Of a stretch of 52,523 nt of DNA, positions 1 to 6,000 are shown piece after piece. The first letter of the stretch is position 1. Each line of letters starts with the position of its first letter. Made by a program: the position numbers. Source of the stretch: a virus (lineage: Duplodnaviria > Heunggongvirae > Uroviricota > Caudoviricetes); the IMG/VR virus record IMGVR_UViG_2563366768_000003. The stretch is one strand, 5' to 3'.

Positions 1-3000
1 CTGATTAAGTATGTCGATAAGGCGTTTCCATCCGTCACGTAATTTACGGGTGATTCGTTCAAGTAAAGATTCGGAAGGGCAGCCAGCAACAGGCCACCCT
101 GCAATGGCATATTGCATGGTGTGCTCCTTATTTATACATAACGAAAAACGCCTCGAGTGAAGCGTTATTGGTATGCGGTAAAGCCGCACTCAGGCGGCCT
201 TGATAGTCATATCATCTGAATCAAATATTCCTGATGTATCGATATCGGTAATTCTTATTCCTTCGCTACCATCCATTGAAGGCCATCCTTCCTGACCATT
301 TCCATCATTCCAGTCGAACTCACACACAACACCATATGCATTTAAGTCGCTTGAAATTGCTATAAGCAGAGCATGTTGCGCCAGCATGATTAATACAGCA
401 TTTAATACAGAGCCGTGTTTATTGAGTCGGTATTCAGAGTCTGACCAGAAATTATTAATCTGGTGAAGTTTTTCCTCTGTCATTACGTCATGGTCGATTT
501 CAATTTCTATTGATGCTTTCCAGTCGTAATCAATGATGTATTTTTTGATGTTTGACATCTGTTCATATCCTCACAGATAAAAAATCGCCCTCACATTGGA
601 GGGCAAAGAAGATTTCCAATAATCAGAACAAGTCGGCTCCTGTTTAGTTACGAGCGACATTGCTCCGTGTATTCACTCGTTGGAATGAATACACAGTGCT
701 TATTCGTACTAATAAAATACCCAATTTTCTGTTTCTTGGTTGTGTCCAAAGTTATATTCAATATCTGGTGTTGATGTATCAATATTCTTCATACCATCAA
801 CAAGAGTTGATACAACAGCCAAATCTTGTTTGATTCTCATTAAATGGTATTTCTTCCGGCGCAATAAACTTTCAATGGCAAGTTTCTTCGTTGGGAATGC
901 AAAAGATCTTTCTGCATTTTTTGCTACTTTCTTAATTGCATATCTATTTCTCCTTTGTTTCCATTCCTGTAACCACTGATTTGGTGCTGGTTTAAAATTA
1001 ACAATCCAATGCGCAGGAACCAACCATGCATAATGCTCTGTCTGATGAAAAGCTATATATTGAAGTGCGAATATTTTTATCCCATCTTCTTCAACTGTCG
1101 CCTGGAATCTCCAGAAAACAGGCATTCCATCATGTTCAGTTTCTGATTCAGGAAAAGGTACGCTCCATGATTTTGTCATATATCACCTCAAATAAGTGGT
1201 TTGCTGCCTAATTTCATTTTCTGGCGACCAACACAAGTCATCTTGCTGTCAGTTGTTTGGATTTCCGGTAGCCTGCCGCGTAAAGAGCTACATTTGGAAG
1301 ACATACACCAGTTTCTGGTTGCTTATGTCCAAACTCATTCGCGTACACAATGGCCGCTCGCTCCAGATTGCGTCTGTATTCTTCCTGCTGCCAGATCACG
1401 TCCTGTGCCATGAACTTAATTGGCTTAGCGTCTTCTATGCGATCAGGCGTTTCGTGAGTACCTTTAGCCTGAATCTGCGCTCTACTTAGAGTTGGGCGGT
1501 GTAATACTTCTGAACTTATTGCTTCTTCGCGGGCCAGTACGCCGTTAGCTAATGCCTTTGCCTTTAAACGCTCACGACGACGAGAACGAGAATTGCCTTT
1601 GAACTGAGTTCTGCGTGTCATATGGAACCTCCTGATGAACTTTGGCGGTGAATACAGCCGGGCGACTAACTCCGGTCGCGTAATCATTGCAAAGCGCCTC
1701 CGCCGAGAAGGTTAGCTTCTGCATTCACCCCAAAGTTCACTTTGGTTATTGCGCTTTGTCAGCGCCGTAGATTCATATTCGAATCGTTGTATATTCACCG
1801 CCCTGGTGAGTAGTGCGTCCTGCTGATGGGTGAACTTTATCGGAATGATAAATTAATGGCAATAGCAAAATGATAAATTCTCTTGGTTTTCAAATATCGT
1901 ATTGATTCTTATGGTGTTTTATTTTGTTGTAGGAATTCGACAGGATAAATAAAGAGATTTGAGGGAGATCTGGATTGCGTTGTTTAGCAAGTTGTATCTA
2001 TTTATTTTTCAACAAATACAATTGGTTATGTGTTTTTAGGTGTGGGGATCGTGAGGCAAAGAAAACCCGGCGCTGAGGCCGGGTGGGGAATTTCACTTAT
2101 TACTGTTCGTTTCCATGGGATTGGCCAAGAAATCAAAATAAGGCAGAGTGAACCTACCAAGGTTTGACATGAGGATAATTTGCTCGGCATATGTTTTTAT
2201 ATAGGGATATGCCATATTGGGAGCAATGGACCTTACCTCATATGATTTTGCCATTTCATGAGAAAAATCATCTTCTGACCGGAAGTCAAAGTCGTATGTG
2301 ATGTCCATCTCAAGCCTGCCTTCAATAGTTACGGAGGCAAAATATCTCACTCTAAATAGCTTTGAATCCTTCACATTAGTGTAAAGTTCATTATTTAGAT
2401 TAACGGTTGTTTTTATGGCTTTTTTTGCTGTTGAATCGCCTTCTAGCCGTGTCATAACCAAGCGTTCAACTTTTTTGCTAATGAGTTCAATTTTCATGGT
2501 AATAATAAGTAATTTCCGTCAGAAGTCATTTCGTCATTCAGGTTGCTAGCCGCTGTGAAACTTGATGACAAGTTACTTATCAAAGAAAAAACATTCCGTT
2601 TTTCTTTGCATTTGCCATTACCCCTTACTGCGCTGAACAACATTTTTGAAAAGTAAGATTCTGTAGCCTTTTCAGCGAAATAAGCAGAAGGTGATGTGAC
2701 GGCTGACTCACACCGAGCAATGACGCTAGTCATGGCTGTTTCTTCTTCCTCTGCGTCAACTAGGCTCCATTCAATTGCGCTCATATCTTGAATTAAGATA
2801 TCTGCAGGAATTCCAAGTCCGTCATGTAGTCTACGGATCATTGAAAGACTTAATGGACGCTTACGATTTAAGACCTCAGATACTTTAGATGCTGAGCCAA
2901 TGTATTGTTTCATATCGGCATAAGAGAGGCCTTGTTGATCCATACGGAACTTGATTGCTTCTATGGGATCTGGCTTGTCCATAGGGAACTCGCGTGACTC

Positions 3001-6000
3001 ATAGTGCTCGATAAGCAAGCCTAGTAGTTCAAACTCATCAAAATCTTCAGTTCCAGGTTGTAAATCACTAGACGCAAGTTCAATGAGCCTTTCCATAGCT
3101 GCAGCATGCTCTTCACTATTTTTAATGATGCGCCAGCTAGTTCGATTCATTTAAGCCTCCACTTGTCGTACTCTGCATGAGTTCCAACTCTTTCAACTAT
3201 GACCATTCCTGCCTGGTAAACAACTTGGACAACGAGCCGATAGTTATTGCCTTTTATATTAAAAATTACCCTGTTGTTAGGAAGGAAGTCGGCAGAATTA
3301 AATCTATTCCGTATGTCTTGAGTCGTTTTCCAGTTTTCTCTTATCACTTCATCATACCAAGAGTCTAAAGCCCCCTTGGCCTGATTGTGCTTCCGGCTAA
3401 AACTGTGAAGCTTCTCTACGTTTAAGACCTTCATAATCCGATTTTGTTCCCTCTTTGGGAATTATAGATTCATTTCCCATAAAGGGAATCTGTATTTTTA
3501 TCCAGAAATGCTATGTACATCACCCAAACGTCTCTTCAGGCCACTGGTTACCAGCTATGTGACGATGAAGTCACGAACTTTTCAGCCACTCCCTTGCCTC
3601 GATGTCATCCAGATGGCGAGATTGCTTCAGAATACCAGCCACATACTCCACCTTTGCTACTTGATGATAAGGCAACGTTATTGGCCTGTGGTCCTGGTTG
3701 ATGCTTGTAAATTGGTATTCTCCGTCTCTGTCATAGCCAAGAACTTTGATCATGTTGTGTCCTTCAACAGTTCTGACAAACACCTCATCACCCGGGAATA
3801 CTTTGGTGTTAGGCTCAATGAGTACATATTCTCCTGATTTTATTCTGGGCCACATGCTGTCTCCTTTCACACGAAGACCAAAGGCATCTGGATCATCGCT
3901 ATAAATTTTGAGCCACCCATCGCGCTCTTCGGTCATCTCGATGGCACCATCAACACCAAGAATTGCCTCACCAACCACGCGCACTAACCCTTTTCTTACC
4001 TGACCGACAAAAGTTAAAGAATCTGAGCATGATGCAATTGGTGTTACATCATGTACCAAATCAAGCCACCCATTAGGTAACCCAAGCGCGGCTTCAAATT
4101 TTCTTGCTAGTTTATCCCCTATGTTTCGAGTGCTTTTTTCACCGGAGACTTGCGTGAGTTGAGAAGGGCTAACCCCAAGCTTATCGGCAAAGCTTGCATT
4201 AGTGTTACCCGCGATTTTTTTATGCTCATCTAGCAAAAACGCCAGATTCGATTTGCGAATATCTTTGTTTTCCATCTCACAATTTTCCCTCTATTTAGCA
4301 AATGGATAAATACGCAATATGATAAATTTACATTGCGGATGATTTATCAAAATGGTAAAGTTGTTCTGTGTGATAAACGGAGGCACTAATGAGTAATGAA
4401 CTACTACGCTGGCGAAAAGAGGCTTCTAGTGAGGAATGGAAGCGACTCGCCGCATTAGCGAAAACTTCAGTTGGCTATCTTGACCAGATTGCATATGGAT
4501 TTCGAAGAGCTTCCCCTGATAAAGCGAATGCAATCGAAGAAGCTACTCGTAATTTCACGGGTTATAAACCTGTGAAAAAGGAAAACCTAGTGTTCGTATC
4601 GCGTAGAGCATCGGCTGCATAAGTAACACCGCTATTTTCACAATGGACATTCGTCCTACGTCGCTGACAAAGCGAGTCCCAATATATCTGACCAACTAAG
4701 GCCATATGCGTTTCCACGCATACCTTTCAACTAGCTATTCACTATTGGAAATCTTAAGAAATGGAACAAACAAGTTACAGCAAACTATCACAGCGAGAAA
4801 TTGATCGCGCTGAAACTGATTTACTCATCAACCTGTCAACGCTTACCCAGCGCGGTCTGGCAAAGATGATTGGCTGTCATGAATCGAAGATAAGCAGAAC
4901 AGACTGGAGGTTTATAGCTTCGGTCTTGTGTGCTTTTGGCATGGCATCAGACATCAGTCCGATTAGCAGAGCTTTTAAGTATGCGCTTGATGAAATCACA
5001 AAGAAAAAATCCCCGGTGGCCGCCGGGGACTCTAAGCAAATTGATATGCAATTCTGAGGGAATTACTGGATCAATCCACAGGAGTCATTATGACAAATAC
5101 AGCAAAAATACTCAACTTCGGCAGAGGTAACTTTGCCGAACAGGAGCGTAATGTGGCAGATCTCGATGATGGTTACGCCAGACTATCAAATATGCTGCTT
5201 GAGGCTTATTCAGGCGCAGATCTGACCAAGCGACAGTTTAAAGTGCTGCTTGCCATTCTGCGTAAAACCTATGGGTGGAATAAACCAATGGACAGAATCA
5301 CCGATTCTCAACTTAGCGAGATTACAAAGTTACCCGTCAAACGGTGCAATGAAGCCAAGTTAGAACTCGTCAGAATGAATATTATCAAGCAGCAAGGCGG
5401 CATGTTTGGACCAAATAAAAACACCTCAGAATGGTGCATCCCTCAAAACGAGGGAGGTTCCCCTAAAATGAGGGACATCCCTCAAAACGAGGGAAAATCC
5501 CCTAAAACGAGGGATAAAACATCCCTCAAATTAGGGGATTGCTATCCCTCAAAACAGGGGGACACAAAAGACACTATTACAAAAGAAAAAGAAAAGATTA
5601 TTCGTCCGAGAATTCTGGCGAATCCTCTGACCAGACAGAAAACGATCTTTCTGTGGTTAAACCGGATGCTGCAATTCAGAGCGGCAGCAAGTGGGGAACA
5701 GCAGAAGACCTGACCGCCGCAGAGTGGATGTTTGACATGGTGAAGACCATCGCACCATCAGCCAGAAAACCGAATTTTGCTGGGTGGGCTAACGATATCC
5801 GCCTGATGCGTGAACGTGACGGACGTAACCACCGCGACATGTGCGTGCTGTTCCGCTGGGCATGCCAGGACAACTTCTGGTCCGGTAACGTGCTGAGCCC
5901 GGCCAAACTCCGCGACAAGTGGACCCAGCTCGAAATCAACCGTAACAAGCAACAGGCAGTCGTGACAGCCAGCAAACCAAAACTCGACCTGACAAACACA

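Follow-up and report, generated by a model that had tools for sequence, protein, structure and literature searches.

A HigBAC toxin-antitoxin-chaperone module downstream of cI in an Stx2a-converting phage, very probably an allele of the anti-phage system of Escherichia coli NT1F31

The sequence analysed here, referred to as the window, is the whole 52,523-nt stretch of the tailed-phage (Caudoviricetes) record IMGVR_UViG_2563366768_000003 from IMG/VR. Three minus-strand genes in its immunity region very probably form a HigBAC toxin-antitoxin-chaperone (TAC) anti-phage system, allelic to that of Escherichia coli NT1F31 and lying in the slot after cI where phage lambda has rexAB. Both the module and its genomic context are already known and were characterised experimentally in 2024. 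The products of higB, higA and higC are also called proteins 1, 2 and 3 below, and the genes and the two parts of higA are as follows.

3434..3147, minus strand: higB, 95 aa, RelE-superfamily mRNA-interferase toxin
3150..2494, minus strand: higA, 218 aa, helix-turn-helix (HTH) domain followed by a C-terminal tail
2497..2093, minus strand: higC, 134 aa, SecB-like (SecB-TA) chaperone
2785..3150, minus strand: N-terminal part of higA, residues 1-122, helical HigA-type HTH antitoxin domain
2497..2787, minus strand: C-terminal tail of higA, residues 122-218, chaperone-addiction (ChAD) region with W128, F158, F188 and Y214

HigBAC was described by Mets et al. from a lambdoid prophage of E. coli NT1F31, where it sits "downstream of the cI repressor" in the place of lambda's RexAB; the genes encode WP_112844290.1, WP_112844289.1 and WP_112844288.1, and HigA is 218 aa long with its ChAD at residues 122-218 (bioRxiv 10.1101/2024.02.24.581848). 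The annotations of E. coli J6 and NT1F31 contain exactly these RefSeq proteins. The window allele is separated from the NT1F31 proteins by three substitutions in all, one per protein: HigB is 98.9% identical to WP_112844290.1 (sole difference I31R; window I, published R), HigA 99.5% identical to WP_112844289.1 (R185Q; window R, published Q) and HigC 99.3% identical to WP_112844288.1 (A27T; window A, published T). All eight residues probed or modelled by Mets et al. are found at the same positions in the window proteins, namely W128, F158, F188 and Y214 of HigA and Y39, N41, R49 and D71 of HigC, and the window cI is identical to that of the NT1F31 prophage over 233 aligned residues (of 234). 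The first-pass annotation of this DNA had offered the genomic context of the module as its point of interest; the RexAB-slot location is explicit in the preprint, and the context is therefore not new. The words 'Shiga' and 'Stx' occur nowhere in that preprint, a literature search on HigB with Stx prophages returned nothing on the module, and a search on 'HigBAC' returned only the preprint and passing mentions. The study has reportedly also come out in Cell Host & Microbe in 2024.

Each of the three proteins was assigned by profile, sequence and structure comparison. Protein 1 matched the Pfam family PF09907 HigB_toxin at E=4.5e-30 (104.2 bits where the cut-off is 27, spanning profile positions 2-74 of 74), the PADLOC profile PD-Lambda-2_A at E=2.5e-42 and the solved E. 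coli HigB in the PDB at E=1e-4, and its reading as a HigB/RelE-type toxin is thereby secured. Residues 53-119 of protein 2 aligned with the solved E. coli HigA (5ycl/5ifg, E about 5e-5), and the PADLOC profile PD-Lambda-2_B matched it over positions 3-125 (E=3.8e-50); Pfam HTH_3 scored 20.9 bits, under its cut-off of 23. The AlphaFold2 (AF2) model of HigA, built with 26 homologues, was confident and helical over residues 1-126, with a predicted local distance difference test score (pLDDT) above 90 at residues 11-120, and residues 127-217, with pLDDT below 50 and no secondary structure, are predicted to be disordered. By length, relatives of the N-terminal domain are either 122-137 aa or 190-230 aa. 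The shorter ones (57-73% identity) stop at about residue 122-135, where the tail begins, and the longer ones bear a variable tail in which W128 is conserved. The HigA-type HTH with an extra C-terminal tail, as proposed at first pass, is thus supported by the match to the solved HigA and by a tail of about 95 aa that the 122-137-aa relatives lack.

The AF2 model of HigC (pLDDT 87, predicted template modelling score 0.80) was compared with the PDB by Foldseek, and the top 19 matches were all SecB or SecB-TA. The best was 5mtw, the Mycobacterium tuberculosis Rv1957 TAC chaperone with a ChAD peptide (E=5.4e-7, template modelling score 0.73-0.75), followed by SecB of E. coli and Haemophilus influenzae (1qyn, 1fx3, 1ozb; E about 1e-6 to 1e-5). 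The sole sequence-profile link was the PADLOC profile PD-T4-9_C (CmdC), which matched HigC at E=3.2e-11. All of the 20 HigC homologues compared keep R49 and D71, and Y39 and N41 vary in few of them or in none. Of the SecB C-terminal pattern reported at first pass, the PN..YPY part stands (P93 N94 .. Y97 P98 Y99, with P93, Y97, P98 and Y99 invariant in homologues) and the '...F.L' part does not, the window protein reading IKT-Y-A-E there. With the HigB family, the HigA domain plus tail and the SecB fold each upheld, the TAC interpretation survived as a whole.

The placement of the module was established from the neighbouring features.

4275..3571, minus strand: cI repressor, LexA-like, Peptidase_S24 at E=3.8e-16, upstream neighbour of higB
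1834..1885, minus strand: OL/PL-like region, left border of the slot, upstream of N
1687..1238, minus strand: N, Pfam N_peptide, downstream of the OL/PL-like region

The same repressor gene is annotated cI in BP-4795 and ST2-8624. The OL/PL-like region holds a promoter-like TTGCCA-17-TAAAGT at 1862..1834 and an oR2-like operator at 1866-1882, which a second ATGATAAAT copy adjoins (OL/PL-like repeats). The gene order is that of a lambdoid immunity region, running from cI through higBAC and OL/PL (~1834-1885) to N, and the slot therefore corresponds to that of lambda rexAB. The three genes are co-directional in the order toxin, antitoxin, chaperone, and both junctions are ATGA start-stop overlaps. 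In these respects the first-pass annotation was accurate throughout: the three minus-strand reading frames, their coordinates, the two overlaps and the downstream terminator were all exactly as described, the Peptidase_S24 and N_peptide matches flank the module on either side as its placement between cI and PL/N had it, and the carrier is indeed an Stx2 phage, the window being 100% identical over 24 kb to the Stx2a-converting phage Stx2a_WGPS9.

Two regulatory features bound the operon.

3447..3489, minus strand: putative higBAC promoter/operator, two palindromes flanking TATAAT
2055..2084, minus strand: intrinsic terminator at the end of the operon, where lambda has tIMM

The first palindrome, TTCCCTTTATGGGAA at 3488..3474, overlaps the -35 position and the second, TTCCCAAAGAGGGAA at 3461..3447, overlaps the -10/+1 position. 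Both are 15-bp inverted repeats of the form TTCCC-N5-GGGAA, and they are the sole two in the 52.5 kb against 0.05 expected. A perfect TATAAT -10 lies between them at 3466..3461, and three cassettes with diverging flanks have the promoter/operator region unchanged (100%). The palindromes of the promoter claimed at first pass are thus real as sequence and above chance; TATAAT upstream of higB is a putative active promoter, and, as in higBA operons that are autoregulated, HigA may bind both palindromes. Promoter-like sites in the region as a whole were not above shuffled sequence in the sigma-70 scan (5 vs 6.1). The terminator hairpin at 2084..2065, 9 nt past the last stop, has a 7-bp stem with 6 G-C pairs, a 6-nt loop and the tail UUUCUUU; its RNA folds at -16 kcal/mol (z = -2.5), and it is kept in cassettes whose downstream flanks diverge. 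No terminator was predicted on the minus strand from 3571 to 3434, between cI and higB, so read-through from PRM into higBAC, and with it co-transcription with cI, is possible. The intergenic RNA between cI and higB (3435-3575, minus strand), if transcribed from PRM, would fold at -39.5 kcal/mol (z = -2.9 vs shuffles), with both operator palindromes pairing into one long hairpin; this structure was considered as a terminator and rejected, as no U-run follows any stem. A scan of positions 1-6000 against Rfam gave no match inside the module.

The function of the system has been worked out on the NT1F31 proteins. Translation is the specific target of NT1F31 HigB. Without HigC the HigBA pair is toxic, HigC rescues it, and removal of HigA residues 122-218 turns HigBA into an ordinary, chaperone-independent toxin-antitoxin (TA) pair (bioRxiv 10.1101/2024.02.24.581848). 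The rescue is abolished by the HigA triple change W128A/F158A/Y214A, HigC R49A is unable to rescue, and the affinity of HigC for a peptide of HigA residues 121-148 is about 1 μM, with competition shown by isothermal titration calorimetry (bioRxiv 10.1101/2024.02.24.581848). Lambda-vir and Bas25 are both defended against by the NT1F31 operon; phages that escape it have the S54P change in gpV, co-expression of gpV triggers toxicity, and gpV binds HigC directly, the authors' model being that nascent gpV competes with the ChAD for HigC (bioRxiv 10.1101/2024.02.24.581848). In proteins 99% identical to those of the window, then, HigB is toxic, full-length HigA needs HigC and deletion of the tail frees HigBA from that need, as the first-pass reading of the module supposed.

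These experiments were all made on the NT1F31 allele, from which each window protein is one residue off, and the window allele could in principle be altered or dead through I31 (for R) in HigB, R185 (for Q) in HigA or A27 (for T) in HigC. This is very unlikely: the eight residues of demonstrated or predicted importance do not include any substituted site, and residue 27 of HigC lies in loop 21-30, which is the only low-confidence part of the model (mean pLDDT 63) and is variable among homologues. The three reading frames are intact, and 83 of the 88 genome copies of the module described below have at least 99% DNA identity to the window.

Taking the window module as a functioning HigBAC allele, HigB would be a translation-inhibiting RelE-family toxin neutralised via the N-terminal domain of HigA. 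The 97-residue disordered HigA tail (ChAD, 122-218) would make the antitoxin non-functional unless tetrameric HigC holds it, with HigC pockets including R49 recognising the tail aromatics W128, F158, F188 and Y214. On infection by a lambda-like phage, the nascent major tail protein gpV (segment 48-78, S54 and W67 being critical) would compete for HigC; with HigC drawn off, HigA would fail and HigB would be freed, and translation and phage production would be shut down. In the lysogen the operon would probably be transcribed from its own TATAAT promoter under autorepression by HigA, with or without HigB, at the two flanking palindromes, perhaps with extra transcription by read-through from PRM, and transcription would stop at the terminator at 2084..2065. 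As the Stx2a phage has no gpV homologue, the module could exclude lambdoid phages of the gpV type and would be untriggered by the carrier's own late proteins.

The distribution of the module was surveyed in phage records and complete genomes. The 2.5-kb cI-higBAC region is 100% identical in BP-4795 (ORF20-22), vB_EcoS_ST2-8624, Stx2a_WGPS9 and many Stx1a phage records, and the module is also present in many Stx2a phage records. Of 5426 complete E. coli genomes 88 carry it, in every case chromosomally, and they include the reference enterohaemorrhagic strains O26:H11 11368 and O157:H7 86-24; rows sampled at even steps down the genome ranking were mostly 100% identical strains of Shiga toxin-producing or enterohaemorrhagic E. 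coli (STEC/EHEC). In J6 the module stands beside a cI 68% identical to that of the window, and in YZ_2_2 a diverged copy (88-98% protein identity) stands beside a cI only 19% identical to it. Homology of the YZ_2_2 copy to the window runs from about 110 bp upstream of higB (window ~3546) to just past the terminator (window ~2055), with sharp borders at both ends. The sharp borders and the unrelated cI neighbours indicate that the module is exchanged between immunity regions as one block of about 1.5 kb; judged by these sequence comparisons, the mobile cassette consists of the promoter, the operators, the three genes and the terminator.

The published trigger, gpV, was sought in the carriers. 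No lambda gpV homologue was found in the window (tblastn, E at least 1.8) or in BP-4795, and the tail tube of YZ_2_2 is of the HK97 type. Four lambda-tailed prophages with the exact published HigBAC proteins (NT1F31, 10034940-2, 15.03CC and J6) each have a lambda-type gpV gene, in every case on the minus strand.

20668-21408, minus strand: gpV gene in L012 (NT1F31, NZ_CP045190.1)
23259-23999, minus strand: gpV gene in L014
24588-25328, minus strand: gpV gene in L015
23136-23876, minus strand: gpV gene in L011

The N-domain of NT1F31 gpV differs from lambda's only by S23N, with segment 48-78 identical, and those of 10034940-2 and 15.03CC are 100% identical to lambda's; J6 gpV has G71V within the trigger segment. 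S54, DDED61-64 and W67 are kept in all four. Residue 54 is not fixed among natural gpV homologues, which are 79-84% identical to lambda gpV; W67 and DDED61-64 are conserved in all of them, and 18 Stx-phage records encode gpV homologues. The homologues compared at residue 54 are these.

101-577: gpV homologue in Stx2_12E129_yecE (L009), P54
22648-23400: gpV homologue in E. coli PK8241 (L017), P54
101-577: gpV homologue in Stx2_14040 (L010), S54

P54 is what the S54P escape mutants selected in the laboratory carry. It occurs without HigBAC in Stx2_12E129_yecE, a long-tailed Stx2a phage, and together with HigBAC in PK8241.

It is a tentative suggestion, and a doubtful one at present, that HigBAC serves as a weapon between lambdoid phages; the specificity of the gpV trigger fits some carriers, those without the trigger, being short-tailed or HK97-tailed (the window Stx2a phage, BP-4795 and YZ_2_2), and not others. 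If it did serve so, the lambda-tailed carriers would have an undescribed way of avoiding self-abortion on induction, for which candidate routes would be shut-off or dilution of HigBAC after cI cleavage, a phage anti-HigC factor, or weak firing at the native dose, and the natural P54 gpV alleles (in the Stx2a phage and in PK8241) would be field escape variants.

Several points weigh against reading the window module as a working HigBAC defence system, the first of them concerning HigC. Pfam, its SecB model included, gave no family for HigC at E≤0.1, and neither phmmer nor a 20-sequence profile found a SecB for HigC among the PDB sequences (RPABC3 at E=0.09 and thioredoxin at E=1.1 were chance matches), so that fold comparison was needed for the kinship to SecB, which the predicted fold and the PADLOC profile together suggest. 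The SecB assignment made at first pass was accordingly divided in its outcome, being missed at the level of the Pfam SecB profile, caught by that of CmdC, and borne out by structure prediction and fold comparison of the 134-aa protein, with 5mtw best. The Pfam miss, the lack of any NCBIfam match for proteins 2 and 3 and the RefSeq label 'hypothetical protein' for protein 3 would all suit a plain higBA pair followed by an unrelated downstream passenger, the long HigA tail then having no role. That arrangement is scarcely credible. HigC has a SecB fold with a TAC chaperone as its best match, the genes are translationally coupled by ATGA, and the homologues of HigC and of tail-bearing HigA come from overlapping enterobacterial taxa; for the NT1F31 allele it is refuted, HigBA being toxic without HigC and deletion of the tail ending the dependence.

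The remaining points concern activity in the natural setting. The function proposed for the window allele is carried over from the NT1F31 proteins, three substitutions away, and the sigma-70 consensus scan called no higB promoter, the -35 (ATTCCC) being poor. The published defence was obtained with a constitutive Ptet on pBR322, not with a single-copy prophage (bioRxiv 10.1101/2024.02.24.581848); the preprint's constructs are PBAD and Ptet ones, and the words 'lysogen' and 'native promoter' are absent from it. The four carriers with a gpV of their own, moreover, make it questionable whether firing is strong at native levels. The plasmid-borne assays and these four carriers could mean that the main natural role of the module is prophage addiction (lysogen stabilisation), or that it is a near-neutral passenger, the anti-lambda defence being largely an effect of multicopy over-expression. 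The trigger segment is identical to lambda's in three of the four carriers, which strong firing would hurt, and the preprint addresses neither native expression nor self-triggering in lambda-tailed carriers on induction. Even so, this alternative is unlikely. The slot after cI is a known home of exclusion systems, with RexAB as the paradigm, the escape mutants map to a specific phage protein that directly binds HigC, the cassette moves as a unit between unrelated immunity regions in the manner of defence cargo, and natural P54 in some Stx and lambdoid gpV homologues fits selection by such a system. An anti-phage HigBAC is still very probably the right identification.

Its value is mainly one of annotation. 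In BP-4795, ST2-8624, Stx2a_WGPS9 and RefSeq E. coli genomes the first gene is at present labelled 'HigB family toxin', the second 'transcriptional regulator' or 'HTH domain protein' and the third 'hypothetical protein'; these labels can now give way to HigB, HigA and HigC, the names used for a characterised defence system. Stx lysogens with the module may resist lambda-like siphophages, which would matter for competition between Stx phages and when phages are chosen for therapy or typing. No new kind of biology is involved; what is still of interest is how the operon is natively regulated in Stx lysogens, together with the pattern of self-trigger and escape alleles.

Other features of the window were recorded in passing. 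Compared with BP-4795, whose O gene is intact (312 aa), the replication gene O (5090-6027, plus strand) lacks 1 bp of an A-run (AAAAG-AAAAAG) at about 5585 and is split into two reading frames, of 207 aa and 162 aa. Either the frameshift is genuine, and the prophage would then be replication-defective, or the homopolymer was misread in sequencing. The cIII thermoregulator RNA Lambda_thermo (Rfam RF01804) was found at 72-130 on the minus strand, at 88.5 bits against a gathering score of 50. Between N and cIII, at 190-558 and 709-1179 on the minus strand, lie genes for a DUF2528 protein (E=2e-47; named Ea10 or 'ssb' in related phages) and for a 156-aa protein without a Pfam family.

Among known systems, lambda RexAB is a two-protein membrane-depolarising system. 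The module shares with it the position after cI, the strand, a terminator before OL/PL and a prophage-encoded exclusion role; there is no sequence or fold relationship, no Rex family having appeared among the Pfam, PADLOC and PHROGs matches of the three proteins, and the resemblance is positional only. E. coli K-12 HigBA (5ifg, 5ycl) has a homologous toxin and antitoxin HTH domain (E about 1e-4 and 5e-5), but comprises two genes, with a HigA of 138 aa, no ChAD and no chaperone. PD-lambda-2 likewise defends against lambda-vir, its A protein is a close homologue of HigB and the first ~125 residues of its B protein are homologous to HigA (PMC9519451). Its B protein, however, is about 400 aa long, with a C-terminal peptidase domain in place of the ChAD, and it is B, not A, that is toxic, while its C protein is related to the P4 antitoxin and not to SecB (PMC9519451). 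Identity of the window module with PD-lambda-2 was considered and rejected, since only 3-125 of the 402 B-profile positions match, no PD-Lambda-2_C match was obtained and the third gene differs.

CmdTAC, which is PD-T4-9, is an anti-phage TAC with a homologous SecB-like chaperone, but its toxin is an mRNA ADP-ribosyltransferase, its antitoxin is unrelated, and it defends against T-even phages (PMC9519451; PMC11618068). The M. tuberculosis HigB1-HigA1-SecB(TA) system, Rv1955-Rv1957, has the same make-up of HigB toxin, HigA with C-terminal ChAD and SecB-like chaperone (PMC5105189; PDB 5mtw). In contrast to it, HigC is only 16-17% identical to Rv1957, the ChAD is over twice as long, HigA (as found for NT1F31) is independent of ClpXP degradation, and HigBAC is phage-borne with an anti-phage role demonstrated for NT1F31. 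With NT1F31 HigBAC itself the window module has in common the three genes, their order and lengths (95/218/134 aa), the slot, the ChAD aromatics and the HigC pocket residues. The difference lies in the carriers: that of NT1F31 is a lambda-tailed prophage at the bio locus encoding a gpV with an intact trigger segment, whereas that of the window is a short-tailed Stx2a-converting phage of the Stx2a_WGPS9 type without a gpV homologue.

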